From assembly GCA_963710415.1 (NCBI GenBank), contig CAVQAH010000024.1:150234-214233 (forward strand): a stretch of 64,000 bases of DNA. The letters run 5' to 3'. How positions within the stretch are numbered: the first letter of the stretch is position 1; the number at the start of each line of letters is the position of its first letter. The notes under the pieces are model-generated. The model worked only from the letters and a program-made list of their open reading frames with translations. It was not told where the DNA came from and ran no database searches. Source of the stretch: an uncultured Acidobacteriota bacterium (GTDB lineage: Bacteria > Acidobacteriota > Vicinamibacteria > Vicinamibacterales > 2-12-FULL-66-21). This document shows, one piece after another, positions 23,311-43,544 of the stretch. The translations under genes and the position numbers were made by a program.

Positions 23311-23355
23311 GGATGATCTACTCGAGGATGATCTACGCGAAGATGACCTACTCGA
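23311..23355. repeat. 15-nt tandem repeat x3
   Basis: 'GGATGATCTACTCGA GGATGATCTACGCGA AGATGACCTACTCGA' fills the 37-nt gap between convergent aroB and the regulator. The last unit contains the regulator's stop codon. Confidence 0.8.
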
Positions 23356-24742
23356 GGCGGTGCTCTTTGACCTTGGAGAGCAGCATCTTGTAGGTGATCT
23401 GCAACAGCTCGGCGGCGCGGCCCTTGTTGTTATCGGCTTCCCGCAGGACCTGCTGGATCTTCAGACGCTCGGCCAGTGACATCGCGCGCCTGCCGACGTC
23501 GGTGAGACTGCCCGACATCTCGAACTCCGCCCACGGATCCGCTTCGGGCTCCGGCTGCGCATGAACGGCGTGGAACGTCAGGTTGAGATGACGCGGCAGA
23601 ATCGTGTCGCCTTCGGCGAGGATGACGGCGCGCTCGATGCTGTTCTGCAGCTCGCGGACGTTCCCCGGCCACCGGTATGACACGAGCTGCTCCACGGCGG
23701 CCGGCGACAGCACGATCGGTTTCTTCTTCATGTCGCGGCAGAAGCGGTCCGTGAAGTAACGAGCGAGGAGCGGGATGTCGCCCGGCCGCTCGCGCAGCGG
23801 CGGCACCGTAATCGGGAACACCGATAGCCTGAAGAACAGGTCCTCGCGAAAGCGCCGCGCGGCCACTTGTGCGCGCAGACCGCGATTGGTTGCGGCGACG
23901 AGCCGGACGTCGACCGTCACGAGCGCGGTGCCCCCGACACGCTCGAAGCGTTTTTCTTCGAGGGCGCGGAGAATTTTCGCCTGCAGCGAGAGGGGCAGAT
24001 CGCCGATCTCGTCGAGGAACAGCGTGCCGTGGTGAGCCATCTCGAACTTGCCAGGCTTCCTGGCCACGGCGCCGGTAAACGCGCCCTTTTCATGTCCGAA
24101 GAGCTCGGTCTCGAGCAGGGTTTCAGGGATGGCCGCGCAGTTGATCGCGACAAACGGCTCGTCTGCGCGCGGGCTCAGCGCGTGCAGCGAGCGCGCGAAC
24201 AACTCCTTACCGGTACCGCTTTCCCCTTCGAGGAGCACCGTCGTGTCGGTCGACGCGGCGCGCTGCAGCGAAGCGAACACCTTGCGCAGCGAGGGATCTT
24301 CGCCGACGAGCAACGGCGCGCCGCGCCGCACCGCGAGCTCTTCCTTCAGCAGGAGGTTTTCCGTCTGTATGCGGCGCTGCTCCAGGGCGCGAGCGACCAG
24401 CAGCAACAGATGGTCGGGATCGACAGGCTTCGCCAGAAAGTCGAGCGCGCCTTCCCTCATGGCGGCGACCGCATCCTCGATGCTGCCGTACGCCGTCATG
24501 ACGATCACCGGGATCTCCGAATCGAGTTCCTTGGTCGCGCGGAGGACGCCGAAGCCGTCACCTGCCGGGAGCCGCAGATCCGAAAGGACGAGCGCTGGCT
24601 GGTTGTGCTGAAGAAGTTGGACGGCTTCTTCCTGATCGCGCGCCTCGAGGACACCATGACCCTGGCGCTCCAGCGCGTGCCGAAGCATCGCGCGCAGCGA
24701 GTCCTTGTCCTCGACGATCAGGATTTGGGCGGGCGCAGCCAA
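23348..24742 (-). CDS. Sigma54-dependent response regulator (NtrC family: REC + AAA+ + Fis-type HTH)
   Basis: ORF 23348..24742 (464 aa), intact. Contains '[19 protein letters not shown]...DLRLPAGDG', '[53 protein letters not shown]' and a C-terminal HTH '[23 protein letters not shown]'. Confidence 0.9.
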
Positions 24743-26107: not shown

Positions 26108-26110
26108 GGA

Positions 26111-27194: not shown

Positions 27195-27196
27195 GG

Positions 27197-27784
27197 CTAT
27201 TGGTCCTTCCGCGTCCTGAGTCCGACGAGGAGCGTGTCCTGACCACTGCGTACGCTCCACGGCCTGCTGCCTCGGCGAGCCTCTGCCGCGACCGTCGTGA
27301 CACGCACTGACAGAATCAGCGTGCGAGCGGGTGACACCGGCAGCGGCTGCACCGCCCAGCGCCGAATGAATATCGCGTCCCGTGGCGGTGTGGCACCGTT
27401 GCCGAGCCAACGGCCCTGGTCGTCGAGATAGTCGACAAATGGCGGAATGTTTGCGGACAACGTCCCCGCTGGCGAAGGCATCAGCCCCGTGCCGCTATCG
27501 TCAGGAGGATCGACACTCAGATTCGCCGTCGAATCGGACCTTGGCTGCGGGGTTGCCGATGATGCATCGTAGGCCCACGTCAGGGATCGAAGCTGCTCGA
27601 GTTTTGCGGCCGCGAGAATCGTGGAGGATGTCTGCTCGCGCGCAGCGGCAGCCGCCCGCATCGACATGGCAAAGAGCTGGGCGACCCCTATCGACACGGT
27701 CACCATCAGGCCGAGGGCAACGACAACCTCGATGAGCGTGAAGCCCGCGCAGCTTCTGAGGACCGTCCCATGTCTCCCCGCCAT
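27197..27784 (-). CDS. pilV: PilV-like minor pilin, set A
   Basis: ORF 27197..27784 (195 aa) with 'SCAGFTLIEVVVALGLMVTVSIGVAQLF'. It shares long motifs with 33993..34595, for example 'KLEQLRSLTWAYD' against 'KMEQIRSLTWGFD', and 'FVDYLD.QG.W.G.G.TPP..A.(F/Y)IRRW'. Confidence 0.7.
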   Translation of the reverse strand: MAGRHGTVLRSCAGFTLIEVVVALGLMVTVSIGVAQLFAMSMRAAAAAREQTSSTILAAAKLEQLRSLTWAYDASSATPQPRSDSTANLSVDPPDDSGTGLMPSPAGTLSANIPPFVDYLDDQGRWLGNGATPPRDAIFIRRWAVQPLPVSPARTLILSVRVTTVAAEARRGSRPWSVRSGQDTLLVGLRTRKDQ

Positions 27785-27797
27785 GACGGTCCGTGGT

Positions 27798-27812
27798 GCA
27801 ATGCGAACGCCA
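27798..27812 (-). promoter_or_regulatory. Candidate sigma54 (-24/-12) promoter abutting the pilV (set A) start codon
   Basis: The minus strand reads 'TGGCGTtcgcaTTGCaccacggaccgtcATG'. GG-N10-GC spacing is correct, and the ATG lies 13 nt after the -12 C. Confidence 0.45.
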
Positions 27813-27933: not shown

Positions 27934-28851
27934 TCAGAGCGTCTGTGGATTTCCGGGGTTCGTCGGTGCCGGCGCGCCGGTCAGCTGGCCGATCCGCGCC
28001 TTGATCTTCTCTGCGTCTCCGGCCGCAGGCGCCAGGCGCAGATACTCTTCGTACGCCGCCACCGCATCGGTCGTGCGCTGCAGACGTTCGTAGCTCAGTG
28101 CAAGCGCGAAATGAAACGAGGCATCCGACGGCGACAGCGCGATCGCCTTCTTGTACTCCTCGACTGCCGCCAGGTCGTCGCCTTTCTTGTGCAGCGTCAG
28201 GGCCAGGTTGAACGTCGTTGCGTAGTCGCTTGGAAACAGCTGCTGAGCCTGACGGTAAGAGGCGATCGATTCGTCCCACTTGCCGAGCACTGACAGCGCC
28301 CGTGCGAGATTGAAGCGGTACGCCCAGCGATCTGGAATCAAGCGTAATCGCTTTTTGGAAGTGCGGCACCGCTTCCGCTGGCTTACCAAGCCGGACGAGG
28401 ATCTGCCCGAGGTTGCTGTGCGACTCGGCGTCATCAGGGTTCTTGGCAATCGCCGCCTTGTACTGCTCGAGAGCTGACTGGTAGTCGCCTGTGGCATACG
28501 CGGTCGCTCCGGCGCCCGACGGGTCGAGAAACGGCGTGGGCGCCGGTTCCGCCGGCTTGGCGGCTGCCGCCGCCGGGGCCGGTTCGGGCTTTGGCTGGCG
28601 GCGCGCCGCGAACGGATCGACGGGCTTGGTCGTGAAACCGCGGCCGGCTTGTCGCCTTTCAGGAGCCACAGACCTCCGATGCCCAGGACGAACGCGGCCC
28701 CAAGCGCCGCACTCCATTTGGCGAGCTGCTGGCTGTGGCGAGCGCTGACTGCAGGATCGGGACGGAAACGCGCGCGACAGCGCGGGCAGCGGTCGTGCGC
28801 CGCGTTCACCTTGGCGCCGCAGGACGGACAGAGAACGGCCTCACTCATCAT
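27934..28851 (-). CDS. Zinc-ribbon / TM / TPR-repeat protein, two frame breaks
   Basis: ORF 27934..28851 has N-terminal 'CPSCGAKVNAAHDRCPRCRA', a TM segment, and C-terminal TPR repeats ('YATTFNLALTLHKKGDDLAAVEEYKKAIALSPSDASFHFALALSY'). The middle TPR repeats ('YQSALEQYKAAIAKNPDDAESHSNLGQILVRLGKPAEAVPHFQKAI') are in ORF 27893..28717. Breaks are near 28650 and 28330. Confidence 0.6.
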   Translation of the reverse strand: MMSEAVLCPSCGAKVNAAHDRCPRCRARFRPDPAVSARHSQQLAKWSAALGAAFVLGIGGLWLLKGDKPAAVSRPSPSIRSRRAASQSPNRPRRRQPPSRRNRRPRRFSTRRAPERPRMPQATTSQLSSSTRRRLPRTLMTPSRTATSGRSSSGLVSQRKRCRTSKKRLRLIPDRWAYRFNLARALSVLGKWDESIASYRQAQQLFPSDYATTFNLALTLHKKGDDLAAVEEYKKAIALSPSDASFHFALALSYERLQRTTDAVAAYEEYLRLAPAAGDAEKIKARIGQLTGAPAPTNPGNPQTL

Positions 28852-31800
28852 CGGATTTCCCGCCAGGACAGGATGCGGACGCCGACCTGGCCGATACCGT
28901 TGTTGAAGTCCTCGGGATCGCCGAATGCTTCGACCGCGGCCCCGGTCTCACCGGCGGTACCCAGATACAAGTGCTGATCGACGATGAACGGTGCGGTCGC
29001 CCGCCCGGCCATCGCACGGACGATCGGGCTCTCGTTGTTCTCGAGCTTGCCGCTGTTGTTCGTGTCGTAGGCGGCGCCGCCGCTGTAGGTCAGCGCGTAG
29101 AGTCTCGAGGTGAAGTCCGCGCACGGCGTGCCGGCGACTTCAACGGTCGTCGTGTAGAACACGATGTCACCGGCGACCGATGGAGAGGTCGAAGGCCGCT
29201 CGCCATTTGCCAGGCCGCCGGAGAGGGTCACCGTGCCGAGATCGCGAGTGAACTTCGTCGTCGCGCCGGCGCCTGGCGAGTTGTCCTTGAGACCGAACAA
29301 CTGGAACGTTCCGAGGCCTCCTGGCGCCGTGGCTGCCAGCAGATCGCTGCCCGTCGCGAAGAACATGTACACATCTGCGCTGCCAACGAACAGCAAGGCC
29401 GATGAGGCATAGATGGGTGCCCCTGCGTCGACCATCTCCGAGACCGTGATCGCGCCCGCCGATGTGAAGTTGAACCGCCAGTACTTGCCGTCGATATCAC
29501 CGAGATACGCCTTGGTGACGACGGGGCTTCCCGCCTCACCTGCCGCGGTGGGGTCCGCCTGCAAGGCATTCTTGCGGCCGTTTCCGCCGATGTCGCCAAC
29601 CGAATAGCAGCCCGTGCCGGCGCACGACCCGCCGCCGCTGTTCCCAATCAACTCGCCGGTGTCCGCATTGATCAGGTACATCGACATGCCCGCTTTCGGC
29701 GCGGAGGCCCCGCGATTGGGAATCGACGCCTCGATATCCGGGAAATAGCCCGATCCAACGATCACCGCATTCAGCGAGCGATCCGGGGTCAGCGGACCAA
29801 CCGCCGGGTCCGACCACGTCAGGCCGACCGTCTTCTCGACGTGGTTCGCCGTCGCCTTGAGATCACCAAAGACCTTGAACCTGCCTCCGGGCGTCCCGTC
29901 GGCGACGGTGAACGTCGCGGTGTAGGTCGGGTCGAAGCTCGAGTAGTTCGGGAACGCCCACTTGAACTGGATGCTCTCGCCAGGCGAGTCGAACAGCGAC
30001 AGCATCGTGTTCACCGCGGTTTGTCCATCAGCCGTGGGATCGAGCCCCATGCCGGCTTCGGTGACGTCGAAGGCCTGATAGAACGTTCCGCCCTGGCCCT
30101 GCCCGATGATGAGCATGCTGCGCCAGCTGCCACTCAACTTGACTTCAGCGATCTTCGGCGAGCTGTCCACGAAGTAGTCGAACTGCTCGACCGGCTGGCC
30201 ATCGAGAAGTGTCCGAAGCTTCGGCAGCAGGTTGTACGGAATGAACGCCCATACCTCGAAGCCAGTCCGCGCGTCAACGGCGTGGATCATTCCGTCGTTG
30301 GCACCGAAGAAGATCATGCTGCGACGGTCCTTGTGGCTGCCAGCAAACGTACCGGTCGCGTCAGAACGCCCGTAGTCGTCGTCCGGCGGAGGATCGAGCG
30401 ATGGCGCGTCCATCAACGCCGGCGTGGACCCGATTACCGCTCCAAGCGCTTGCGCGCGGACGAACGTGATCAGAGTCGCCGCGTTCGACACCCCGCCAAG
30501 GTGAGGCGCGAGCGTGGCGGCGTTGCTGGTCGTGAATGCCACCATGGAACCGCCGCCAGATCCATTCGGGATGTAGGTGTAGATGTTGCGCGTGGCTCGG
30601 ATCCGATGGCGTTCTGGCTAGACCTGCCAGCGAAGGCCGTCCATCGATGTCGGGCCAGAGGCGCGTGCCGTCGTTGACGAATTTCCATCCGGCCGGTTTC
30701 GTCGCGTCGATTTCCGGCCGGTAGACGCGGAACGCTCGGAGTCGGCCATCGAACCCCGGAAGCCTGAAACCCGCACTGATCATCACGTTGCTGCGCTGCG
30801 GCAGCGGCTGACCACCTGGGATGGCCGTGATGTCGGTGTTCGGCAGCGGGCTGCCGGCCGAATTGACACCGTCCTTCAGGTTGACGGTGCCGATGATCGG
30901 GCTGACCGGGACGAAGTCGCTCGAATTGCCGGTATCGAAATCCGCCTGGCGCGCAAATCCGGCCTGGACGGCGTAGTTGATGGCAGCGGTGACGTCATTG
31001 GCGGTGACCGCCTTTGTGTACCTGCCGCCACTGTTGGTCGCGACCGAACGGAGCTCCAACTCGTCGGCAGCCGCCGGCCTCACAGCCACGACGTGGATGG
31101 GAACTCGTTTGGTCACGCCGCTGGCGGTGACGGTCAGAAACGTCGTCGCGGTGGTGACCGGATCGTTGCTCGCGTTGTACGCCGCGTCGCCGTCGTCTTT
31201 GCCGCTCGTGATCAGGACGACGACCGTGTTGCGGCATGAACGGTTGGCCGCGCTGTCGGCGGTCATCGCCGCGATGGCGGCAGCCTTCGCATCCAGCAAG
31301 GCGTAGTTGATTGGGCGGTCCTCGTAGCCGACGCCGCCGCGGCCCGCAGGCACCAGGCCAAGGTCGTCGCCAATCGGCCGGTTCAGTCGGTCCAGCACCG
31401 TCGTCGCCGAGGCATTCGCCGGCGTGACCATCACGGTCCCGGCCGGCGCTGCGGCCTGGGCATAACTCGCGGCGGCAACACTCGGCGCATAGATCCCGTA
31501 ACGGCCGAGGCCACCGGCGTTGCACGGATTGGTATCACCGTAGAGCAGCTGGGCCAGGCTGTTGACAGATACCGGACGATCGCAATTCGGCGACACGCGC
31601 CACGCCGGGGTCGACTGGCGCAGCCTGAGCAAACCCCATCTGAACATGCTCCCCGCGTTCTCCGTGACCGCGGCGGCCAGCCCGCTTTTGGCGATCGAGT
31701 AGCGCGTCTCGTCGAGGAACGCCAGATCGGCCGGCGCATTCGACGTCAGTGGCACCGCTGGATCCCAGACGGCCGCCGAGGGCGTAATCAAATCAGCGGA

Positions 31801-32126
31801 GTACCCAGCCGGCAGCGCCACGTGGGTCAGGTTCCGGTAGACGCGACGATAGGTCTTGACGGTGGCCGGCGTTGATCCCCGGGAAGGCCCCCATCACCGC
31901 GGGATCCGCGGTCGTCGAGTAGAACGCAGGATCGTAGAAGTTGCCGTTCCCGTCCTCGAGCATGCGTACGCGACGTGTCCACGACGACAATGACGGTCGG
32001 AGGGACGCGCTTGAGAAAAAGGAGCGGGTCGAGCTGCGCCCACACGGTCGCCGAACCGGCCAGCACGAGCGTCGCTGCCAGTATCGCGGCCGTCGCGCGA
32101 CGAGCGGACGAAGAAGTCATCAACAT
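28848..32126 (-). CDS. pilY1: PilY1-like pilus tip protein (N-terminal vWA-like + C-terminal beta-propeller), at least three frame breaks
   Basis: ORF 31827..32126 has a signal peptide plus 'VIVVVDTS'. ORF 30361..31821 carries the vWA-like region 'NTVVVLITSGKDDGDAAY'. ORF 28848..30545 has the hallmark PilY1 propeller motif 'MIFFGANDGMIHAVDARTGFEVWAFIPYNLLPKL'. Breaks are near 31960, 31825 and 30550. Confidence 0.75.
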
Positions 32127-32891
32127 TACTGCACCGTCAGTCCACCAGTGGTGGTGTTCATCCGCATGTTCGTCAGCGTTTTGCCGGGAGTCTGCACGGC
32201 GGCCTTGCGAGCGCGCTGGTTCAGCTCTTCCTGACCGCGCTGCGCGATCTGGCCGCGCTCGATTTCCGTGCTCGATGTTCGGGCCACGGTCACTTCGACG
32301 ATCTTGCGGGTACCGCCAGGCCCGTACGCTTCCGCATGAACGGTCAGTGTGCCGTTCACGTCGGCTTGTGGGTTGCCGTCATCCTCCGCAGGATCGTCCG
32401 CAATCCAAGCCACGAGATACATCGGGCTGTCGACGGCGGCCGTGTCCGGCAACACCTGCATGAGCGGCCCCCACGCGAAGAGCCGCCACTGCGGGTTGTT
32501 TGCCCCCCACATGTTCAACGTGTCGGTTTCTGACTGCAGCTGGCCGGTCGCGGTGTTCGTGCCGCAGCAGAGCGTCGTCACGCCACCGCCCACAAGCTGC
32601 TTCTGTCCGGTCATGGCCGCCGTCGACGAACGACGACTGCGTCGCGCCGGTCAGGATGTCGTTCCACCGCGGCACCATCAGGAGGTCCTGCACCACCCGC
32701 TCGACCGCGGCATCGGCGGCGTACAGCGCCTCCTGGGCGTTGCTGTAGTTGTTCGAGATCTTGGTTTCCGTCGTGGTCACCATGATCATGGCGGCGCTGA
32801 GCGCGCTCAGGAGCATCATCGCCATGAGCGCGATGATGAGCGCCGTGCCCTCTTCTGCGCCGAGCCGTTGCCGAATTCTCGTCATGTCCAC
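32126..32891 (-). CDS. pilX: PilX-like minor pilin, set B, one frame break
   Basis: ORF 32379..32891 has 'EEGTALIIALMAMMLLSALSAAMIMVTTTETKISNNY'. ORF 32126..32614 has 'NPQWRLFAWGPLMQVLP...MYLVAWIADDPAEDDGNPQADVNGTLTVHAEAYG'. The break is near 32600. Confidence 0.6.
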
Positions 32892-32901
32892 AGCAGCATC
32901 C

Positions 32902-33996
32902 TCAGCGAGCCAGGTTCAGGTTTCGAGGCGTGACCTCGAAGCTCACGGTGTAGTCGGGCACCGAGCGCTCCGCGCCGGCTTGAACGGCCGGGATTTGCCC
33001 AGAGCGTCTGATCGGTGCCCCGCAACGCGGCACTGGCAACCTGGATGCGCAGGGTCACGCGCACTTTGCGCACGCGAAGCAGGTCCGGGTCGAACTGGTT
33101 CGACCCGCCGCCGCAGAAGGGGCCGTCGGTCAACATCGCCGGGGTCAGTGCAGCCAGCGACCCGTCGACTGTCGGCAGGACGCCAGGACCGATGTAGTTG
33201 CCCGAGGCGTCGTAGAGGCAGTTCGCCTCGCCCGCCGCCGGCTTTGGCTTCAAGTGGCGGATTCGGATCGCCGAAATAGCTCAATTGCAGATCGACGACG
33301 TTGTCGACGAGTGGCCGTTCGGCGCTGCCGCCGTCGTATTGCATCAGCTGATTGGTCGTCCGATTCAGGTAGATCGTGCTGCTGACCGCCTGCGTGACGG
33401 AGGCATTTTTTTGATACTCGTGGCTGAGAGTCCTGACCTCGATGCTGAAGGTGAGCCGCGCGTCCTGCACTTGGGTGATCTCGAACGTGTCGAAGTGGCC
33501 ACTCGAGTCGAAGATGATCACGACCATCCCCTCCTCGAAGCCGCACAGCTCATCCCCATGGGGACAATTCGGCTGGTCGTTCACCTTCAGCTCGGCCGAG
33601 AGCGCAGGCATCGGATGGCTGAGCGTCGTCTGCGAATAGGTATTCGGAATGTAGGTCAGCGTGATCGCGTCAGGCCGAAAGACGGTTGGGGGATCCGGAT
33701 TGACGCGCCCAATCCGTCGCGGAAGAACCGGCGCGAAAAAGTTGATGAGCGAACCAGTGACCGGGCCCTTGATACGTGCCGGCACCGGCCATGACCAGCT
33801 CCTTGAACAAGGTGTCGGTCCCCACGCGCATCCGCTGCTGCAGGTCCGAGACCTCGGGCGTCGCCTGGGACATGCCTTGGGCCGGGTTCATGAGCCCGAA
33901 GATCGCACCCGTCACGACGAGCATGACGGCCGACGCCACCAACAGCTCGATCAGTGAGTAGCCGGCCTCCGGCTGACGATGCGCACGGGTCGTCAT
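32902..33996 (-). CDS. pilW: PilW-like minor pilin, set B, at least three frame breaks
   Basis: ORF 33670..33996 has 'EAGYSLIELLVASAVMLVVTGAIFG'. The middle is in ORF 32943..33785. 'DGPFCGGGSNQFDPDLLRVRKVRVTLRIQ' is in ORF 32882..33253. The true C-terminus 'VPDYTVSFEVTPRNLNLAR*' is in a further frame, with its stop at about 32902. Confidence 0.6.
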
Positions 33997-34595
33997 TGTG
34001 CCTTCCTCGTCTTCATCGTGATGAGCAGCGCGTCACCAGCCATTCGCGTGCGTGTCCAGGCCGTCGCGACACGCGTGTTCTCGTTGGCCACCGGCGTGAC
34101 CAGCACCTGGATGACGAGCGAGTTGTTGGGATTGGTGGGCAGGGGCAGAATCGACCAGCGCCTGATGTAGACCGCGCTGGCTGGCGGCGTGGTGCCCGTC
34201 CCGACCCATGCCCCCTGCGCATCGAGGTAGTCCACGAATCCCGACGTGTTCTGCTCGAGCGAATTGTCCGGCGACGGGTTCAGCCCGGACCCGTTCGCCT
34301 GCGGCGGATACACCGCCAGGTTCGACGTCGTATCGCTGACCGGCAGACCGAGACCGTCGGGGTCGAATCCCCACGTCAGCGATCGGATCTGCTCCATCTT
34401 CTGTTCCGCCAGCGTCGTCGCCGACGTCCGGCCCTTGGCAGTCACATTCGCGCGGGTCGACATCGCGAAGAGCTGCGCGACGCCCAGCGACACGACCGAC
34501 AGCAGCCCGATGGCGATGACCACCTCGATCAGGCTGAAGCCATCGCCGTTCCCGGCCGCGCGACTACTGAGCGAGGACGACTTTGCCTGCACCAT
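33993..34595 (-). CDS. pilV: PilV-like minor pilin, set B
   Basis: ORF 33993..34595 (200 aa), intact. Contains 'GDGFSLIEVVIAIGLLSVVSLGVAQLFAMS'. Confidence 0.7.
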   Translation of the reverse strand: MVQAKSSSLSSRAAGNGDGFSLIEVVIAIGLLSVVSLGVAQLFAMSTRANVTAKGRTSATTLAEQKMEQIRSLTWGFDPDGLGLPVSDTTSNLAVYPPQANGSGLNPSPDNSLEQNTSGFVDYLDAQGAWVGTGTTPPASAVYIRRWSILPLPTNPNNSLVIQVLVTPVANENTRVATAWTRTRMAGDALLITMKTRKAQ

Positions 34596-35119
34596 TGACC
34601 GTCACCGTTTTCGACTTGCCCCTTGCGGGTGACCGTGATCGTCACGGTCGTGGCGATGTTCTGAGCTACGTTGGATACAACCTGCGCCGCGGTGCCGTCC
34701 GGCCGGAACTCGAGCACTTCACTGGTCACCGTGGTACCGTCCGACACGATACGCACCGGGCCGTCGAAATTCGGCCGCGTCATGATGTCCTGGTCCGGCG
34801 CGGGGAACGGGTAGTTGGAAGGCACGCACCGGTTGGTGGCCTGATCCGTCGCGTTGCCCAGCACTTCGACGGTCCGGAAGTAACCGGTCGCCGGGCAGTT
34901 GATCCGGACACGCAGCAGGCGGTTGACCGTGACCGCCTTGAGGCGCGCGCTCTGAAGCTCACGCTCGACCTCGCGCGCCGCCGCGGCCAGCTTGCTGCTT
35001 TCCCCGAGGTCACTGAGGATCGGCAGCGCGAAGGCCATCATGGTGGCCGCCACGGCGATGACCATCACCAGTTCCGTCAGGGAGTACCCGCGCTCGGATC
35101 GACTTGCAGAAAACGTCAC
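34565..35119 (-). CDS. FimT/GspH-like minor pilin, one frame break near the 3' end
   Basis: ORF 34529..35119 has 'SERGYSLTELVMVIAVAATMMAFALPIL...AAREVERELQSARLKAV'. A better C-terminus 'KTVTVNGAGKVVLAQ*' lies in another frame, with a break near 34615 and the stop at about 34565. Confidence 0.65.
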
Positions 35120-35131
35120 GCACCCTGTTGA

Positions 35132-35146
35132 GCAATGCCGCTGCCA
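35132..35146 (-). promoter_or_regulatory. Candidate sigma54 promoter abutting the fimT-like start codon
   Basis: The minus strand reads 'TGGCAGcggcaTTGCtcaacagggtgcGTG'. It shares 'TTGCTCAAC' with the pilA promoter, and the GTG start lies 12 nt after the -12 C. Confidence 0.5.
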
Positions 35147-35272
35147 CTGCCGGGCTCCCAGTTGGCACGATGACCCTAAATTACTGTCCGGATTTCTCTT
35201 ATCTGGCGGGGTTCAGAAACGGATCACACTACTGTCTGGTAGGCCCTGTGCCGTTCTGCGACGCGCGGTTAC

Positions 35273-35300
35273 AAATGGGAAATGGGTTGGCGGAAATGGG
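35273..35300. repeat. Heptamer array AAATGGG (3 of 4 units)
   Basis: 'AAATGGG AAATGGG TTGGCGG AAATGGG', about 130-170 nt upstream of the candidate sigma54 promoter. Confidence 0.7.
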
Positions 35301-35329
35301 CGAAGACGTGAAGTTGTCCGAAGGGACGA

Positions 35330-36589
35330 TCACCCCGGGAGAGGGAGCGTCACGGTCAGCCTGGCCCCGCCACCCTCGGCATTGGCGGCCGCCACGCGTC
35401 CGTTGTGCGTCACGATGATCTTCTGGACGAGCGCGAGGCCGAGTCCCGTGCCGCGCGCTTTCGTGGTGAAGAAAGGCCTGAACATGCGTGCCTGCATGGC
35501 CTCCTGGATTCCCGCGCCGTTGTCGGTCACTGTCACGCGGAGCACCGGATGGCCAGGCTCGCGGCTGCCTTCGATGACGATTCTTGGCGTCACATTCGCT
35601 TCGAGGCACGCCTCCAGGGCGTTGCGACAGAGGTTGCTGAAGGCCTGCCGCAGCAGCACCTCGTCACCATCGACGTGGCCAAACTCGCCGAGAATGTCGA
35701 TTGTCCCTCCCCTGGATCTGACGTCGCCGCGCACGTCGTCGGCGGCACGCTCGACCACTGCCGACATGTCCACGGGGGTCAGCACCAACTCGGTGGGCTT
35801 GGCGAAGTTCAGGAAGTTGGTGACCACCTGACCGAGCGCCTCGGTCTCGTCGCGGATGCCGACCACGCACGCTCTGAAATCGTCGGGCAGACGATCGAGA
35901 TCCAGCAGCCGGCTATAGCCATGAATCGTCGCCAGACCATTGCGGAATTCGTGCGCGATGCCGGCGGTCAGCTCACCGAGCCGCGCCAGGCTGTCTTTCA
36001 GCCGCAATTGCTCCTCGAGCTCGACGACGTCGCTCAGGTCCGTGAACAGGCAGATGGCGCCGTGCGCCGCATCGTCGCCGGCGATGGGCGAGACGGTGAC
36101 GCCGAGGTGTGACGTCGTACCGTTGGCTTTCTTCATCTGCACCGCGCGGCGTACGATGGCGCGGCGGCTCGTCAGACATTCGTCCAGGACGTCGGCCAAC
36201 GCGCTGCTGTCCGTCAACATTTCACGAAAATGTCCGAGCGGCGCGTCCGTGGGCAGATGCAGTATCGATCGGCCGGCGGGGTTCAACGTGCGCACGGCGC
36301 CCTCGGCGCCGACCACCAGCAGGCCTGACGTCATGCTCGCGATGATTTCGCTGCTCAGGCGTTCTGATGCCTCGGCGCGCGCCGCCATCGCACGCTCCTC
36401 GATCCGGAGCTTGCGCACGGCTTCCTCCATGGCTGATGCCATGAAGGCCGTTTCCGCACCTTCGACACGACCTGATTGCGTAGCGGCGCGGGCGGCGGTA
36501 AAGAACTTCGCTGCCGCGAAGGCGAGCAACCCCACCAGCGCCGCGACGACGGCCGTCAAACCGAGGAAGAGGTAGGCTGACTGAGTCAT
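35330..36589 (-). CDS. Membrane sensor histidine kinase (TM + PAS-like + HisKA + HATPase_c, NtrB/AtoS-like)
   Basis: ORF 35330..36589 (419 aa), intact. The H-box is 'LGELTAGIAHEFRNGLATIHGYSRLL'. 'VTDNGAGI' and 'GTGLGLALVQKIIVTHNG' are present. Confidence 0.85.
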   Translation of the reverse strand: MTQSAYLFLGLTAVVAALVGLLAFAAAKFFTAARAATQSGRVEGAETAFMASAMEEAVRKLRIEERAMAARAEASERLSSEIIASMTSGLLVVGAEGAVRTLNPAGRSILHLPTDAPLGHFREMLTDSSALADVLDECLTSRRAIVRRAVQMKKANGTTSHLGVTVSPIAGDDAAHGAICLFTDLSDVVELEEQLRLKDSLARLGELTAGIAHEFRNGLATIHGYSRLLDLDRLPDDFRACVVGIRDETEALGQVVTNFLNFAKPTELVLTPVDMSAVVERAADDVRGDVRSRGGTIDILGEFGHVDGDEVLLRQAFSNLCRNALEACLEANVTPRIVIEGSREPGHPVLRVTVTDNGAGIQEAMQARMFRPFFTTKARGTGLGLALVQKIIVTHNGRVAAANAEGGGARLTVTLPLPG

Positions 36590-36595
36590 CTATTG

Positions 36596-36687
36596 GTGCT
36601 CGCGGGGCCCCAGCCCCGCTCGCTCTCGCTCGGCGGCCGGCCTGCGGCCGGCTTCACTCCGTCGCCTCGCTCGGAGCCGCAGGCGCT
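36596..36687. repeat. ~90-nt GC-rich dispersed intergenic element, copy 2
   Basis: Aligns to 2713..2803. The central hairpin here is GCCGGCC-TGC-GGCCGGC, a different sequence with the same structure. It is followed by 'CGAGCAC', the inverse of its 5' 'GTGCTCG'. Confidence 0.8.
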
Positions 36688-36723
36688 TGCTGGCTGCACG
36701 AGCACGATCATGCGACTCATCAA

Positions 36724-37500
36724 TCAGATCCTATAGAGCCCCACATACCACGCGACGATCTGATCGCCGAACAACGACGCGATGAGGGCGCCCAGCGCGA
36801 GGAAGGTACCGTAGGGGAGCGCGTATTTCAAACCGCCCTTCCTGATCGCCAGAACCAGCAGGCCGATCAGCGCGCCTGCGATCGACGAGAACACCAGCGT
36901 GACGATGGCCAGCTTCCAGCCGAGGAAGGCGCCAATCATCGCCAACATCTTCACGTCGCCGCCGCCCATGCCTTCCTGGCCGGAAAAGCGGTAGTACACC
37001 TCGCCGATGGCCCAGAGACTGCCGCCGCCAATCAAGGCTCCGAGTGCGGCCGCGATGATCCCGGGCGGCAGCAACAAGCTGAAGGCCAATCCGATGGCGA
37101 TCCCGGGGAGCGTGATGGCATTCGGCAGCAGATGATGCTCCAGGTCGATGGCGAAGAGCACGATCAGCATGCAGGCAAAGAACAGCCGCGGGACAAGCAG
37201 GATGTCCGGCCCGATGATCAGATAGTGCGCCAGGAATACGACCATCGTCACGACCTCGATGATCGGATACCGGATCGAGATTGGCGCGCGGCACGAGCGG
37301 CATCGGCCGCGCAGGAGCAGGTAGCTGATCACCGGAATGTTGTCGTACCAGCGCAGGGCGTAGCCGCACCCGGGGCACCGGGAACCGGGGCTGACGACCG
37401 ACTTGTGTTCTGGTAAGCGGTGGATGCAGACGTTGAGGAAACTGCCGACAGCGAGACCGAACAGGGCCAGCACTGTCACCACGAAAGTGTCGGACATCAT
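36724..37500 (-). CDS. pilD: Prepilin peptidase / N-methyltransferase (A24 family)
   Basis: ORF 36724..37500 (258 aa), intact. Contains 'FLNVCIHRLPEHKSVVSPGSRCPGCGYALRWYDNIPVISYLLLRGRCRSCRAPISIRYPIIE' and 'GGGDVKMLAMIGAFLG'. Confidence 0.9.
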   Translation of the reverse strand: MMSDTFVVTVLALFGLAVGSFLNVCIHRLPEHKSVVSPGSRCPGCGYALRWYDNIPVISYLLLRGRCRSCRAPISIRYPIIEVVTMVVFLAHYLIIGPDILLVPRLFFACMLIVLFAIDLEHHLLPNAITLPGIAIGLAFSLLLPPGIIAAALGALIGGGSLWAIGEVYYRFSGQEGMGGGDVKMLAMIGAFLGWKLAIVTLVFSSIAGALIGLLVLAIRKGGLKYALPYGTFLALGALIASLFGDQIVAWYVGLYRI

Positions 37501-38396
37501 GAAGGAGGACGGACCGGATTCTCAGGCATCGGTTGCAGCTCTGACGACGCCGACACGCTGACCTTCCCCGTCGTCGGGTCGATCACGTAGGGCGTGCGGG
37601 TGGAATCCACGGGAACTCCTGGCAGCGCGCGCTGCGAGATCAACCAGCGCCACGAGTACTGCCCGCCCGCCGGCGGTGGGTTGTTCCGCGCGACCCGCTC
37701 CAGCTCGTCGATCACGTCGAGCGCGTCGAGTTGCTGAAGACGGCGAGTGGCGAGCCGGCGCAGCCAGTCCTGATCCGACGCAAGAATCTGACGCCACACC
37801 AGTCGCGCCGACGCGCGATCACCACCGGCGTTGAGCATCACCGCCGCAATCGGCTCCAGCCAGTTGGGCGCACCCGGCTGATCTGCCGCGCGCTGGAACC
37901 ACGTCGCGGCGGCCTTGTAGTCCTTCAAGTGCCAGTAATGCACGAAGGCGACGTCATGGTAGTACTGCCACTTGGTCGGCTGGGCCTTCAGGCCCTTTTG
38001 CAGAAGCGCTTGGGCCTGGTCGGGACGTCCTGGTCCGCCGGGAACCGGCTCGCTGAGAAAGATGGCGCCGAACCGGTAGGCAATCGTGAAGTACGGATCG
38101 AGCGTGGTCGCCAGATCGAGCAGCGGATAGAGCAGATCGTAGTTGCGCGGTCGTGTCTTGATGAGCCGCTCGCCGCCGTAGACCTGAAGCGCTCGGATCC
38201 AGTACACGTCGGACGCCAGCGCATCGAACTCCATCGCCATCCGATCCATGGCCGCGCCGGACTGCACATAAAGGACGCGGCTGGTATCGGCTATCTGACG
38301 AGGGAACTGCCGGTCGCGGAAGACCTGAACGGCGACCGCGGCGGCAAAGACGACGACGGCGGCCACGGCCACGATTGGGTTGCCGGGCCGGCTCAC
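37497..38396 (-). CDS. Membrane-anchored TPR-like protein of unknown function (positional analog of Myxococcus PilG)
   Basis: This is the 3' part of ORF 37497..38789. The likely GTG start overlaps the upstream stop (GTGA). An N-terminal TM segment 'PIVAVAAVVVFAAAVAV' is followed by helical repeats. Confidence 0.5.
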   Translation of the reverse strand: MSRPGNPIVAVAAVVVFAAAVAVQVFRDRQFPRQIADTSRVLYVQSGAAMDRMAMEFDALASDVYWIRALQVYGGERLIKTRPRNYDLLYPLLDLATTLDPYFTIAYRFGAIFLSEPVPGGPGRPDQAQALLQKGLKAQPTKWQYYHDVAFVHYWHLKDYKAAATWFQRAADQPGAPNWLEPIAAVMLNAGGDRASARLVWRQILASDQDWLRRLATRRLQQLDALDVIDELERVARNNPPPAGGQYSWRWLISQRALPGVPVDSTRTPYVIDPTTGKVSVSASSELQPMPENPVRPPS

Positions 38397-39199
38397 TTGA
38401 AATCCCTTCTCGAGAAGATGAACATCGCCAGGAGGAGCACGGCGGTCACGTAGAGCACGCCGTACACCGCCGTCGATGCGAGATACGCGGGAGCCACCGG
38501 CAGGCCATGGACGACCTCGGTCTTGACGTCGAAGGCCGAGAGATCGGGCAGCAAATAGTAGATGCCGCGGGCCAGCCAGATCGCGGGCTTCGATTCGACA
38601 ATCCGATCGAAGTTCTTCAAATCGGTGTTGAAGTGGCCGGCGATGTAGATGCCGAAGGTCAGGGCCGCGGAGAGCAAAGGCGTTGAGAAGGTGGAGAAGA
38701 ACACCGCGACCGCGGTGACGATCGCCAGCTGCATGAAGATCAGGAAGATGGCCTTGAGCAGCGCGGGATCGATGCCCGGTGCGTCCCAACCGGCTTTGAA
38801 CTCGGCCGACTCGGTCACCGTCATGTAGGTCAGCACCAGGTAGAGCGCCGCGGTCATCACGGCGACGTTGACGGCCAGCGTGAGCACGAGGCCGAAGTAC
38901 TTGCCGATGACGAACTGCGTGCGGCTGATGGGCTTCGCGAGGATGGCGTAGATGCTCCGCCGCTCCACCTCTTTCGACACCAGACCGATGCCGATGAAAA
39001 TCGCGATGAACAATCCGAACACGGACGTCGCGGCAAGCCCGAGATCCTTGATGATCTTGACGTCCTGCCCCGCCGTCAGCTGGCCCAGCAGGTAGCTGGA
39101 CGAGATCAGGAGCACCGCGAAGAGCACGAGGTTGTAGGGCACGCGATCGCGGACCGACTCCCGGAACACGTTGATCGCGATCCCGCTAATGGTCCGCAC
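38393..39199 (-). CDS. ABC-2 family transporter permease
   Basis: ORF 38393..39391 has 'VFRESVRDRVPYNLVLFAVLLISSSYLLGQ...VSKEVERRSIYAILAKPISRTQFVIGKYFG'. The likely GTG start is near 39199, overlapping the end of the ATPase gene. Confidence 0.75.
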   Translation of the reverse strand: MRTISGIAINVFRESVRDRVPYNLVLFAVLLISSSYLLGQLTAGQDVKIIKDLGLAATSVFGLFIAIFIGIGLVSKEVERRSIYAILAKPISRTQFVIGKYFGLVLTLAVNVAVMTAALYLVLTYMTVTESAEFKAGWDAPGIDPALLKAIFLIFMQLAIVTAVAVFFSTFSTPLLSAALTFGIYIAGHFNTDLKNFDRIVESKPAIWLARGIYYLLPDLSAFDVKTEVVHGLPVAPAYLASTAVYGVLYVTAVLLLAMFIFSRRDFK

Positions 39200-40169
39200 G
39201 GACGGTCTCTCCTGACTGCGGGGCGCGCGCCCCGGCCCCCATCTCCTGGACCCGGCGGACGAAGAAGTCCTCGAGCGTGTCACGAACGGGATTGATCGAC
39301 ACAAGGCGTGCGCCGGTCGCGACGAGATCCGCCAGCAGCCTTTCCGGCGGGTAGGCAGCGGGCACTTCGAGCGCGTACCGGCCCGGCGCAATCTCCGTCG
39401 AGCGACGGGTGACCGCGCTGATCCGCGCGTGCACGTCCGCCTTCAACCCATCGACGACAATCTCCCAGCCGCGAATGTCGAACGCGAGGATCTCCGTCAG
39501 ACGCCCGGCTGCTGCCAACCGCCCGCCCGCCACGACGGCGACACGGCTGCACAGCGCTTCGGCATCGGACAGGATGTGCGAGCTGAAGAACACCGTACGA
39601 CCCTGATCGCGAAGCTCGAGGATCAACGTACGAATGTCCCGCCGGCCGAGAGGATCCAGGCCCGACATCGGCTCGTCGAGAAAAATCACCTCGGGATCGT
39701 TGATGAGGGCCTGCGCCACGCCGACGCGCTGCACCATGCCTTTTGAGAACTTGCGCAGCTGCAACCGGCGCTCCGCCCCGATGCCGACGCGATCCAGCAG
39801 CGCCGATACCCGCGTTTTCTGATCGGCACGACTGAAGCCAAAGAGTTGCGCGAAGTAGGTGAGCAGCTCCTCCGCCGTGAGGTAGTCGTAAAAGTAGGGA
39901 TTCTCCGGCAGGTAACCGATGCGCTTGCGGACCGAAACGTCGCCAACAGGCTTGCCGAGAATGTCGGCACGGCCGGCGCTGGGAAAAATCAGCTGCATCA
40001 GCAGCTTCAGCGTCGTCGTCTTCCCGGCGCCGTTGGGGCCAAGGAAACCGAACACTTCCCCCGGTTCAACCTGAAGAGACAGGCGATCCAGCGCACGGTA
40101 CGGCCGCTTCCGCCAGAAACCGACCGCGTAGTCCTTTGTCAGCTCCTCGATCTGAATCGCTGGAGGCAT
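39186..40169 (-). CDS. ABC transporter ATP-binding protein
   Basis: ORF 39186..40367, from the Met at 40169. Contains 'MPPAIQIEELTKDY...FGFLGPNGAGKTTTLKLLM', 'FSKGMVQRVGVAQAL' and 'VIFLDEPMSGLDP'. Confidence 0.85.
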   Translation of the reverse strand: MPPAIQIEELTKDYAVGFWRKRPYRALDRLSLQVEPGEVFGFLGPNGAGKTTTLKLLMQLIFPSAGRADILGKPVGDVSVRKRIGYLPENPYFYDYLTAEELLTYFAQLFGFSRADQKTRVSALLDRVGIGAERRLQLRKFSKGMVQRVGVAQALINDPEVIFLDEPMSGLDPLGRRDIRTLILELRDQGRTVFFSSHILSDAEALCSRVAVVAGGRLAAAGRLTEILAFDIRGWEIVVDGLKADVHARISAVTRRSTEIAPGRYALEVPAAYPPERLLADLVATGARLVSINPVRDTLEDFFVRRVQEMGAGARAPQSGETVRADH

Positions 40170-40173
40170 GCAG

Positions 40174-41377
40174 TTACTTGGCTCTCTTGAGCTCCAGATC
40201 GATGATGGCGTCAAGGTATTGCGGCTGCACCGCCTGCGGCAGCTTGCGTCCGGCGATGAAGAAGGTCGGCGTTGAGTGGACGTCGAGCAGCTTGCCCAGG
40301 CCTGCGTCCGTCTTGACCTCTTCGAGCGCGCGCGCATATTGCGCATCGAAATCCTGGATTCCGGCAACGTCGTGCGCCGCCTGCTTGACCTGCTCGGGCG
40401 TGAGCGCCGGCGGACCGAAGTTGGCGAAGATCCAGTCTTCCATCTTCTTCGACGTCCCTTTCGCTCTGGCCATCACCACCGCTGCGGCCGCCTCGCACGA
40501 CGCGTAATGGTTGCCCCCGGGAACGTTGACGTTGCACTCGGGCTCCAGCGGGTAATGCTTGACGACGTAACGGACCTGCCCGGCAGCCTCGTACTTGCTC
40601 AGCACGCCCTTGTACAAATCGTGGGTGATCTTGCAAGCGGGGCACTGATAGTCGTTGAACTTCACCACCAGCACCTTGGCCCCGTTGTCGGGGATCGGCA
40701 CGTCGACCTTGGGCTGCATGTCCCACCACTCGGCAAGCTTCGCCCGCTCGGCATCGGTGACAGGCGGGAGCTGGACCTCCTGGGTCTGCGCAGCCGGCTT
40801 GCGCGAGACCCTCGCGAGGGAACGCGGCGACAACGCCGACGGCCGCCGCCGCGAAGAGCACGGCCGTCAGCAACGCCACCGGCGTGGCAACCATCGTCCG
40901 CACATCGCGGAGCGCACGAGAAGGCAGCTTGGTCATGGGTAACGCAGTCGCTCCACCGGAGATCACGAAAATCGCGACCACCGATACGTAGGTGATCGCA
41001 CACAGAACGCAGAAGACTTTCAGAACGAAGTACGAGGCCCAACCGAGATACAGCACGAACGCAAGCGCCACCGTCGAGAGCGCGAAGATGTACGCAGGGG
41101 CGCTGTCGTGGGCCGCTGACGACGGACGGCGTGTCATCGCGCTCATGACGAGCACGAACGCGAAGTACAGGAGTCCGAGCGGCGCGACTGGAACCCCCAG
41201 AAAGCTACCGTACGGGCTCAGATACGCTTCCGTACAGCTCACTGTCGAACTGACGTCGCAGAAGCTCGTGTACGCGGGATCGGTGAGCAGGCGATAGTGG
41301 ACGTAGGTTGACGTCGCCGCAGCCCCGAGACCCAGGGCCGAGAACGCCAACAACAGCCGGCGCATCGAGGGTTTCAT
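40174..41377 (-). CDS. VKOR (vitamin K epoxide reductase-like) fused to a DsbA-like thioredoxin domain, one frame break
   Basis: ORF 40211..41377 carries the N-terminal multi-TM VKOR with 'SFCDVSSTVSCTEAYLSPYG' and 'FCVLCAITY'. ORF 40174..40833 carries DsbA-like 'VLVVKFNDYQCPACKITH...LDVHSTPTFFIAGRKL'. The break is near 40810. Confidence 0.8.
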
Positions 41378-41489
41378 GTTGTTGATGTGGAATCACGCAG
41401 AGTCCGGCTTCAGCCGGACATCTACTTTGTACCGCGTATCCGTCTGACCGTCAAGGTGTTAGGGGCGTCGCCGCCCGGTTCGAGCGGCG

Positions 41490-42026
41490 TTACCGGGCGG
41501 TCGGCAGCTTCAGCTCGCGCCCGTTCGAAGGGGCGCCCTTCTCGGGCATCTTCCCGGTGAACGTCTCCATGCCCTCGAAGATCACACGGTCGACGTTCGA
41601 GCCGAAATACCGAATCCCGGTCGACCCCGGGTTGGTGGGGTCGGCAGTCACCTGATAACCGGAAGCGGGCTTGTTGCCGGTGCACGCCTTCACGTCGGTC
41701 TCGACCTCGGTGCCGGCCATCTGCACGAAGTACCCATTCTTCCGCACTTGCTCGGCGTAGGTCAGGTCGGGACTCAGGAAAGCCGTGCCAGACCCGGGCA
41801 CCGGTGTTCCCAGCTCCACCAACGTCGGCGCGAAATTCTGCCGACCGCACGTCTGCATGTAAGCGAACTGTGCCTGGTTGATCGCCTCGAGCGCGGCAAT
41901 GGCGGATGCCTCGGCGCCCAATATCCGCGCGTTTCGATACGACGCGACCGAGATCGACAGCAGGACCGCGATGACCGCCATCACGATCAACAGCTCGACC
42001 AGCGTGAAACCGCGAATACCTCGCAC
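41490..42026 (-). CDS. Type IV pilin paralog 1
   Basis: ORF 41490..42026 (178 aa) with 'IRGFTLVELLIVMAVIAVLLSISVASYRNARILGAEASAIAALEAINQAQFAY'. Two Cys residues are present. Confidence 0.8.
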   Translation of the reverse strand: MRGIRGFTLVELLIVMAVIAVLLSISVASYRNARILGAEASAIAALEAINQAQFAYMQTCGRQNFAPTLVELGTPVPGSGTAFLSPDLTYAEQVRKNGYFVQMAGTEVETDVKACTGNKPASGYQVTADPTNPGSTGIRYFGSNVDRVIFEGMETFTGKMPEKGAPSNGRELKLPTAR

Positions 42027-42039
42027 GAATCCAGCTTAC

Positions 42040-42217
42040 ACGTGTTTACTGCGGACGTGTGCAGTGCCACGTGCTGCCGTGGTCCGTGGTCGCGTGCGTC
42101 CGTGTCTGCCGTGCGATCTGCAGCACGCGCGAACATAACCGTGACAGCAGTATCGATGCGAGACACGTAGCACGTGACGAAGCAGCACGGACTACGGAGG
42201 ACGTCCGCACGTGCACG
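42040..42217. repeat. ACGTGC-type heptamer array forming a long imperfect inverted repeat
   Basis: The arms are 'CTGCGGACGTGTGCAGTGCCACGTGCTGCCGTGGTCCGTGG...' and '...CACGGACTACGGAGGACGTCCGCACGTGCACG'. Same unit family as 61801-61967 and 63955-64000. Confidence 0.7.
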
Positions 42218-42764
42218 TTACTGCAGCACGGTCCCTCCGCCTGACGGATCCATCTCCCCCTCGGTTGGCGGAGATGCCGTCCGGCCTGAAGAACAGCACG
42301 TACTTGTTCGTCGTGGCGAACGCCCTGTGGCCGGACCGCCCAATCGACAGCGGAGCGGCGGTCAGGTAATAGCCCATGCGCGTCTGCGATCCGTGGCAGT
42401 CGAATGGCCCGAGCACGGCGCTGCCGGCGTCGAGCGTGATTGTGTAGCCGCTCTTCGTCGACGGGTCCACCGCGAGGTCGGGCGAGATGAATCCGACGGA
42501 TCCGCCGGGGCATGCGGTGGCGAGCACCGACAACTGCACCGCGTATCCTCCGGTCGTGGCCGACGCCGCAAACGCGGCTTCGGCGCTGTTCACCGCGCGC
42601 AGCGTTCCGATGGCGGAGGACTCGTTGCCCGCCATGCGTGCCCGCAGCAGCATCGGCAGCGCCATGGCCGAGACGATTCCGATGATCGCCACCGCTGCCA
42701 GAAGTTCTATCAGTGAAAATCCGCGCGCGCCGTTCGAACGCGCTCGCGCAGCACGCCCCGCCAT
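42192..42764 (-). CDS. Type IV pilin paralog 2 (3' end probably mis-framed; likely true stop near 42218)
   Basis: ORF 42192..42764 has 'ARGFSLIELLAAVAIIGIVSAMALPMLLRARMAGNESSAIGTLRAVNSAEAAF'. An alternative frame ends '...SGGGTVLQ*', parallel to '...ETGGTPLQ*' in the pilA alternative frame. Confidence 0.8.
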   Translation of the reverse strand: MAGRAARARSNGARGFSLIELLAAVAIIGIVSAMALPMLLRARMAGNESSAIGTLRAVNSAEAAFAASATTGGYAVQLSVLATACPGGSVGFISPDLAVDPSTKSGYTITLDAGSAVLGPFDCHGSQTRMGYYLTAAPLSIGRSGHRAFATTNKYVLFFRPDGISANRGGDGSVRRRDRAAVTCTCGRPP

Positions 42765-42857
42765 ACATTCCTCCGTTCAGGGCGGCCTTCGGTCGGGTCT
42801 CGTCCCCAGGCGAACCTTCCGCCTTGTCGAGGCCCCCGGCGTGAGCTGTCGAAGGCC

Positions 42858-42895
42858 AAAAAAAAAGGATGCCCGTGCAGCCGGGCATCCTTTTT
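42858..42895 (-). terminator. Strong intrinsic terminator after pilA
   Basis: The minus strand reads 'AAAAAGGATGCCCG-gctgca-CGGGCATCC-TTTTTTTTT'. It has a 9-bp perfect stem, a 6-nt loop and a 9-T tract. Confidence 0.85.
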
Positions 42896-42901
42896 CGGGT
42901 C

Positions 42902-43529: not shown

Positions 43530-43544
43530 GCAACGGAAGTGCCA
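43530..43544 (-). promoter_or_regulatory. Sigma54 (-24/-12) promoter of pilA
   Basis: The minus strand reads 'TGGCACttccgTTGCt', a perfect consensus, about 95 nt upstream of the pilA ATG. pilR (a sigma54 activator) is adjacent. Confidence 0.8.

Follow-up and report, generated by a model that had tools for sequence, protein, structure and literature searches.

A sigma-54-type promoter at the start codon of a minor-pilin operon in Vicinamibacterales, with a predicted leaderless transcript

We analysed a 64,000-nt stretch of an uncultured Acidobacteriota genome (contig CAVQAH010000024.1, positions 150,234 to 214,233; hereafter the window), in which a -24/-12 element of the sigma-54 type abuts the start codon of fimT, the first gene of a minor-pilin operon. 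We consider it probable that the fimT/U-pilV-pilW-pilX-pilY1 operon lies behind a genuine enhancer-dependent sigma-54 promoter, whose transcript would start on or near the start codon and be translated in a leaderless-type manner. Read directly, minus strand 35146..35117 of the window is TGGCAGCGGCATTGCTCAACAGGGTGCGTG, which parses as TGGCAG CGGCA TTGC TCAACAGGGTGC GTG. Its parts are listed below, with C+n denoting the nth nucleotide past the C of the -12 element.

35141..35146, minus strand: -24 element TGGCAG, with its GG at 35145-35144
35132..35135, minus strand: -12 element TTGC, with its GC at 35133-35132, extending as TTGCTCAAC to 35127
35121..35125, minus strand: G-rich tract GGGTG, at C+7..C+11, anchored on the promoter
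35117..35119, minus strand: GTG start codon; G35119 is C+13 and the predicted transcription start
34529..35119, minus strand: gene for a FimT/FimU (GspH-family) minor prepilin, first of fimT-pilV-pilW-pilX-pilY1

The fimT promoter and its start codon

The element agrees with the sigma-54 consensus TGGCAC-N5-TTGCW, reading TGGCAG-CGGCA-TTGCT at 35146-35131 with its GG and GC doublets one helical turn apart, and the canonical spacing reported in a preliminary description of the window holds (TGGCAG-N5-TTGC, 35146-35132). Both strands of the window (128 kb) contain two exact matches to TGGCA-N6-TTGC, this one and the pilA promoter at 43544-43530; both are on the minus strand, and each precedes a pilin gene. 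Dinucleotide-preserving shuffles yielded a mean of 0.29 such matches, and two or more in 3 of 100 shuffles. The fimT and pilA promoters share the 9-mer TTGCTCAAC, which has no other copy in the window, confirming the identity of the two -12 regions that the same description had noted.

To gauge conservation, we scanned one genome per species and obtained 56 loci. Almost all of them bear the label Vicinamibacterales or Acidobacteriota, with Acidimicrobiia given for one record, and they have the common gene order TPR430-pilD-kinase-fimT-pilV-...-pilY1. A search for TGG[CT]-N7-TTGC just upstream of fimT located the -24/-12 element at the same place in 46 of the 56 species-level loci. Conservation extended to positions outside the search pattern: TGGCA was kept in 38 of 46 and the next G in 32 of 46 on the -24 side, and on the -12 side T was found at C+1 in 41, C at C+2 in 36 and A at C+3 in 33 of 46, the conserved positions after TTGC reading T, C, A, A. 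One-mismatch matches occur at chance level in the window (14 observed versus 12 expected), as they would if the motif were a chance match; exact matches are rare, however, and because of the conservation across loci this explanation is effectively refuted, with a negligible probability. One locus lacking the element (L032:130-200) has a pilR-like activator gene whose stop codon shares bases with the fimT ATG (ATGA), and that operon appears to be co-transcribed with its regulator.

The distance from promoter to start codon is also constrained. In 42 loci the start codon lies 13-20 nt past the -12 C, with modes at 17-18 and 13-14: 2 loci have a distance of 13 (the window and L050), 8 of 14, 2 of 15, 1 of 16, 15 of 17, 12 of 18, 1 of 19 and 1 of 20. 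L055, which has a TGGAA variant of the -24 element, would be a third case at 13. A few loci have distances of 27-75 nt, mostly with canonical Shine-Dalgarno (SD) sites (AGGAG, GGAGG or GAGGTG) 6-9 nt before the start; these bacteria therefore use SD sites when a leader exists, and the window's pilA, with its ~79-nt leader and SD site, behaves likewise.

In the window, the G of GTG 35119 is the 13th nucleotide past the -12 C, leaving 12 nt between them. It opens the open reading frame (ORF) 34529..35119 (minus strand), and no other ATG, GTG or TTG lies in frame between it and the preceding stop, located 83 nt upstream of the -12 C. The earlier claim that the prepilin leader has a single possible start codon at this distance is therefore correct. 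The encoded N-terminus, MTFSASRSERG|YSLTEL, is a class III prepilin leader, with Gly at -1, a hydrophobic residue at +1 and Glu at +5, a motif present also in PilV, PilW and the products of a second minor-pilin operon, pilV2/pilW2. FimT has 395 database homologues, among which the Pfam domains PF12019 (GspH) and PF07963 are found; relatives named by their source are labelled Vicinamibacterales or Acidobacteria metagenome-assembled genomes, or FimT, GspH or prepilin-type proteins. The window's own FimT fell below the threshold in a Pfam scan of the window proteins, and an exact-match look-up of this protein returned no record. Downstream, PilV matched N_methyl and PilY1 matched PF05567. The gene content is that of a minor-pilin operon, with a GspH/FimT-fold gene first, followed by PilV, PilW, PilX and PilY1 in conserved order.

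The sequence quality of the start site had to be checked because the window has many apparent frameshifts. The C-terminal ~30 codons of fimT are out of frame (homologues end ...KGKSKTVTVNGAGKVVLVQ), and reading frames are split at 28848-35119, 43836-45267 and 25980-27410 (minus strand), affecting the fimT C-terminus, pilW (three frames), pilX (two), pilY1 (three), pilR (two) and pilW2. These splits look like indel errors of long-read assembly, not pseudogenes. At the start site itself, close relatives have the identical sequence GGGTGC-GTG-ACG-TTT in three independent short-read contigs from ENA and Logan assemblies (L057, L058 and L059); in L057, one extra G places the GTG at C+14. We therefore rejected sequencing error as the source of ACG/GTG, the same start being present in three independent contigs. 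Public gene calls of the closest orthologues (P0001, P0003 and P0007, from loci L057-L059) are 166 amino acids (aa) long, begin at an internal Met19 and drop the prepilin leader. They are mis-started because the GTG start has no ribosome-binding site, which shows that automatic gene callers mishandle this fimT start.

Most relatives have an ATG start codon, whereas the window and L057-L059 have GTG. The next relative, L001 (78% protein identity), carries GAG-ATG in place of the window's GTG-ACG; this lineage has therefore lost an ancestral ATG and moved the start one codon upstream. The same substitution (ATG to ACG), together with the gene calls that begin at an internal Met, could mean that fimT is silent or decaying and the GTG coincidental. 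We regard this as very improbable. Within the GTG clade, the ratio of non-synonymous to synonymous substitution (dN/dS) is 0.26-0.29, close to the 0.19-0.22 obtained in comparison with L001; these values indicate that fimT is under purifying selection, and on them we rejected a pseudogene reading. Moreover, four strains have the same leader and transmembrane segment, the cleavage-site Gly showing a synonymous GGG/GGC change, and GTG at C+13/14 recurs in other species (L038, L039, L040, L050 and L054).

Enhancer and candidate regulators

Upstream regions aligned on the promoter share a composite motif, CAGAA-n-TGTyAs-N5-GTnnCA-rAA-nn-GnACA, consisting of a 17-bp dyad and a third half-site. Its best match starts 133 +/-1 nt upstream of TGGC in ~30 of 46 loci and ~107-109 nt upstream in a few, with a mean score of 16.8 versus 12.2 in shuffles. 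We take this composite dyad to be the predicted enhancer for a bacterial enhancer-binding protein. The upstream features of the window are as follows.

35247..35279, minus strand: conserved 33-bp enhancer (upstream activating sequence, UAS), CCCATT TGTAAC CGCGC GTCGCA GAAC GGCACA
35174..35206, minus strand: A+T-rich spacer between enhancer and promoter, holding the second CCGGACAGTA copy
35226..35239, minus strand: first repeat, CCAGACAGTA, overlapping the clade-conserved dyad ACAGTAGTGT(GATC)
35273..35300, minus strand: array of three CCCATTT copies (35300-35294, 35286-35280 and 35279-35273)

The window enhancer comprises the dyad TGTnAC-N5-GTnnCA and the third half-site GCACA, at about -128 to -160 from the predicted start. 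Between enhancer and promoter, mean GC content drops to 0.43-0.47 at -60..-31 from TGGC (46 loci), compared with about 0.65 elsewhere, and the A+T-rich spacer is possibly a bend or a site like that of integration host factor (IHF). An IHF site by the strict consensus, which is that of E. coli, was rejected, with matches in only 2 of 46 loci.

The upstream repeats noted in the preliminary description are present, but they are not the conserved control element, which is the enhancer at 35279-35247. CCRGACAGTA occurs at 35239-35230 and 35191-35182 (minus strand), with both copies kept only in the window/L001 lineage. We rejected these repeats as the enhancer on this ground and also by position, copy 1 lying over a clade-specific dyad and copy 2 in the A+T-rich spacer. 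The CCCATTT array, which packs three of the four copies of the whole window into 28 nt and whose last copy overlaps the first enhancer half-site, is common to the closest relatives only, being degenerate in L001 and absent from more distant loci; outside the window/L001 lineage, we rejected it as a conserved element. Just downstream of the enhancer, the dyad ACAGTAGTGT (35226-35235, minus strand) is kept, as CACAG-GT(T)GTGATC, only in the window, L001, L002, L003, L006 and L037, and may be a candidate site for a second regulator.

Two genes in the window encode candidate regulators of the operon.

35330..36589, minus strand: orphan PAS-HisKA-HATPase histidine kinase (by Pfam), candidate sensor for the operon
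23348..24742, minus strand: EBP2, a REC-AAA+(GAFTGA)-HTH NtrC-type activator distinct from PilR, candidate cognate activator

The PAS kinase gene adjoins the fimT promoter in most of the 56 loci, co-directional in most and divergent in L007, L015 and L016. EBP2 orthologues (70-90% identity) are encoded immediately upstream of this promoter in L029 and L034 and near it in L007, L015, L016 and L050. Because of this synteny with the operon, the kinase and EBP2 are likely to form a cognate pair. EBP2 is one of two GAFTGA activators within the window. The pilA promoter has a different enhancer, the palindrome TGACAAATTCTGTCA (43653-43667, plus strand), about 136-150 nt upstream of its predicted start. 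The fimT operon does not share this site, as a member of the PilR regulon would, and has TGTAAC-N5-GTCGCA-GAAC-GGCACA instead; a different activator is therefore expected. Taken together, the element in 46 of 56 loci, the enhancer offset, the GAFTGA activators and the EBP2/kinase synteny strongly support, by comparison, the earlier suggestion that the operon is controlled by an enhancer-binding protein.

These features suggest the following scheme. An NtrC-type response regulator, most likely EBP2 after phosphorylation by the PAS histidine kinase, whose gene (35330-36589) lies just upstream, would bind the 33-bp enhancer ~130-160 bp upstream. The A+T-rich spacer would permit DNA looping, and the activator would open the closed sigma-54 complex at TGGCAG-N5-TTGC. 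RNA polymerase would then start 13-14 nt past the -12 C, which in the window is the G of GTG, producing a leaderless mRNA; in most relatives, the leader would be 0-5 nt. Translation of fimT would proceed by 5'-end-dependent (leaderless-type) initiation and that of the downstream genes by ordinary internal initiation.

The -24/-12 match could instead be mainly a stable site for the sigma-54 holoenzyme, serving as a roadblock or insulator against read-through and not as a productive promoter. In favour of this reading, the closed complexes made by the holoenzyme are stable, and in E. coli many sigma-54 sites lie at non-canonical positions (PMC4591121). We consider this improbable, as the fixed-spacing enhancer, the syntenic activator and kinase, and the loci without an upstream co-directional gene all point to activation.

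Predicted transcription start and translation mode

In the Sinorhizobium meliloti nifH sigma-54 scaffold used for cryo-electron microscopy and numbered -35 to +28, the GG is at -26/-25, the GC is at -14/-13 and +1 is the 13th base past the -12 C, with T at -1 and G at +1 (PMC5505868). Applied to the window, this distance places +1 at G35119, the first base of the GTG, so that the transcript would carry a 5'-terminal GUG, as leaderless mRNAs carry a 5'-terminal AUG or GUG. On this geometry, the predicted leader measures 0 nt in the window and 0-7 nt for the family as a whole, with 0-1 nt for the class of loci at distances 13/14 and 3-5 nt for the 17/18 class. The near-zero leader proposed earlier agrees with this, its length of 1-2 nt becoming 0 nt by nifH numbering; the suggestion that the operon is possibly leaderless draws its support only from the geometry.

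Base composition around the predicted start points to the same position. A pyrimidine at C+13 and a purine at C+14 were each found in 33 of 42 loci. Where the start codon lies at C+17 or later and does not force these bases, the proportions are 23 of 29 for each. In the window, the corresponding pair is C at C+12 and G at C+13. Given the usual pyrimidine-purine preference at -1/+1, this pattern suggests initiation at C+13 or C+14.

The main alternative accepts the sigma-54 promoter as real but has FimT made mainly from a longer transcript, arising by read-through from the kinase gene or from another promoter, with the G-rich tract as its SD site; pilV-pilY1 would then be the main genes expressed from the sigma-54 transcript, or fimT would be translated poorly from it. 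A working SD site in the tract would mean that the translated mRNA must begin upstream of the tract. We rank this reading second to the leaderless one and consider it unlikely. Its prediction for the tract fits poorly: G frequency is 0.5-0.66 at C+7..C+11 in both start-distance classes (42 loci), so that its position follows the promoter and not the start codon, which weakens the SD reading. In the 13/14 class the tract ends 1-2 nt before the start, which would be too near for an SD site. In the window, one nucleotide separates it from the GTG, and it lies upstream of the predicted +1. The tract could be a promoter-proximal element, the ribosome-binding site of a longer transcript, or both.

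The loci in which the kinase gene is divergent bear on the same alternative. L007, L015 and L016 therefore have no upstream co-directional gene for read-through, yet they keep the geometry, with starts at C+14, C+14 and C+17, and are without any SD site. A longer transcript would also leave the clustering of start codons at C+13-18 unexplained. The kinase gene is, on the other hand, co-directional in most loci, as read-through would need. Scans of 34800-35700 found no sigma-70 promoter and no intrinsic terminator, including between the kinase gene and fimT; these negatives neither support nor exclude read-through. An Rfam scan of 34000-45000 found no known RNA element in the intergenic region.

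Several observations weigh against leaderless expression from this promoter. The stretch from the -12 element to the start is enriched in pairing with the anti-SD sequence, which reaches <=-5 kcal/mol in 40% of loci versus 9% of control windows, and in the C+17/18 class the spacing of the G-rich tract to the start is SD-like. With no terminator found after the kinase gene, most genomes could allow read-through. A transcript with a 4-5 nt leader is not leaderless in the strict sense, and in E. coli a GUG at the 5' end serves poorly as a leaderless start. No rpoN gene or RpoN box was found within the 64-kb window; RpoN dependence of the operon is a prediction. The loci are also phylogenetically related, so their counts are not independent events.

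Similar loci and known systems

The operon is part of a larger pilus region on the minus strand of the window. Its first segment runs pilB-pilT-pilC-pilS-pilR, a sigma-54 promoter, three tandem pilA genes, a VKOR-family gene and an ABC-transporter ATPase gene. This is followed by a 430-aa ORF with no Pfam match (TPR430), pilD, the PAS kinase gene, the fimT promoter and fimT-pilV-pilW-pilX-pilY1, and then by a second TPR-like-repeat ORF, the pilV2 set (ATG 27784) and EBP2. Two further promoters in this region are relevant here.

43530..43544, minus strand: pilA sigma-54 promoter, with a ~79-nt leader and the SD site GGGAGAG
27784..27812, minus strand: second minor-pilin operon (pilV2/pilW2), with the -24/-12-like element TGGCGTTCGCATTGC at 27812-27798 and ATG 27784 at C+14

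Three tandem pilA paralogues (41502-43438, minus strand) lie behind the one pilA promoter, and the major pilin starts MKVRNQKG|FTLIELL. The second minor-pilin operon repeats the geometry of fimT, and its product begins MAGRHGTVLRSCAG|FTLIE. The orthologous promoters of this operon in L007, L015 and L016 are 16-24 nt from the start.

The same geometry was sought from the promoter side in metagenome contigs, using TGGCA-N6-TTGCTCAAC and keeping contigs of at least 58% G+C, which gave 45 matches. In 8 of the 45, an ORF of at least 100 aa begins with an ATG or GTG at C+13-15, compared with 2.5% at random positions of the same contigs (p=1e-5), and 7 of the 8 starts are exactly at C+14. Two kinds of case have an unambiguous N-terminus: a secreted Gly/Asn-rich protein with a signal peptide (MRVKTLL...), encoded on three contigs with its ATG at C+14, and a response regulator (MRVVIADDD) with its ATG at C+15. 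The loci include L061:2419-2450, L134:4066-4097, L145 and L078:1618-1650, and their proteins are unrelated to pilins. The arrangement is thus probably not limited to pilin genes. More tentatively, and a little short of an even chance, sigma-54-dependent leaderless (0-5 nt) mRNAs may recur as a class under selection in Acidobacteriota, and perhaps in further soil bacteria of high GC content, with the start fixed 13-14 nt past the -12 C and a promoter-anchored G-rich tract before it.

If the proposed start is correct, enhancer-dependent sigma-54 initiation and leaderless mRNA are compatible, a whole operon can be controlled in a way that leaves no room for regulation in the 5' leader, and sequence alone predicts a precise transcription start in an uncultured, abundant soil lineage. 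Were the recurrent class also real, operon expression would be set purely by an ATP-driven enhancer switch and 5'-end-dependent translation; the operons seen so far encode minor pilins, secreted proteins and response regulators, and standard callers would systematically mis-start them. Annotation pipelines already miss such starts, as the calls of the closest fimT orthologues lose the prepilin signal. The results also point to a previously undescribed candidate kinase-activator pair and enhancer for pilus-tip proteins in Vicinamibacterales.

Sigma-54 control of pilA by PilS-PilR is classical in Pseudomonas, Myxococcus and Geobacter. The fimT operon resembles it in having a -24/-12 promoter with TTGCTCAAC, an upstream enhancer for an NtrC-type activator and a pilin gene as target. 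The window's pilA differs in its ~79-nt leader, strong ribosome-binding site and enhancer TGACAAATTCTGTCA, whereas the promoter of the minor-pilin operon directly adjoins the start codon and has a separate enhancer and a candidate kinase and activator of its own. In P. aeruginosa, fimU-pilVWXY1Y2E is under FimS-AlgR, a dedicated two-component system near the operon that sets the levels of minor pilins and PilY1. The likeness lies in a two-component system next to or near a minor-pilin operon; AlgR, however, is a LytTR-type protein, not an AAA+ sigma-54 activator, and the promoter there is not of the -24/-12 type.

In Xanthomonas oryzae, RpoN2-PilRX influences expression of the fimT-pilVWXYE operon, so that here too a sigma-54 system affects a fimT-led minor-pilin operon (PMC7170775). 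The reported direct sigma-54 targets in that species, which belongs to another phylum, are pilR, pilA and pilC, with the effect on fimT exerted via PilRX, and no promoter abutting a start codon is described (PMC7170775). The nifH promoter is close in its core, TGGCAC-N5-TTGC with 12 nt between the -12 C and +1, a pyrimidine at -1 and G at +1 (PMC5505868), but nifH mRNA has an ordinary leader, whereas in the window the predicted +1 is the start codon itself.

Sigma-54 promoters and leaderless mRNAs are both well known and are normally discussed apart, because leaderless genes are recognized by a sigma-70 -10 box just before the start. A literature search, of incomplete coverage and so yielding absence of evidence only, found no report linking the two. 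Leaderless genes have been predicted at 10-19% in three Acidobacteria genomes, from sigma-70-type promoters only, a limitation that the authors name (PMC3160421); this prediction adds to the plausibility of a leaderless fimT transcript. The sigma-70-type leaderless mRNAs of Actinobacteria, Deinococcus, Caulobacter and rhizobia are like the predicted fimT transcript in having the start codon at or a few nucleotides from the 5' end and not requiring an SD site. The described cases differ in having a -10 box (Pribnow or extended -10) ~7 nt before the start. The promoter-on-start-codon layout is a new arrangement of known parts.

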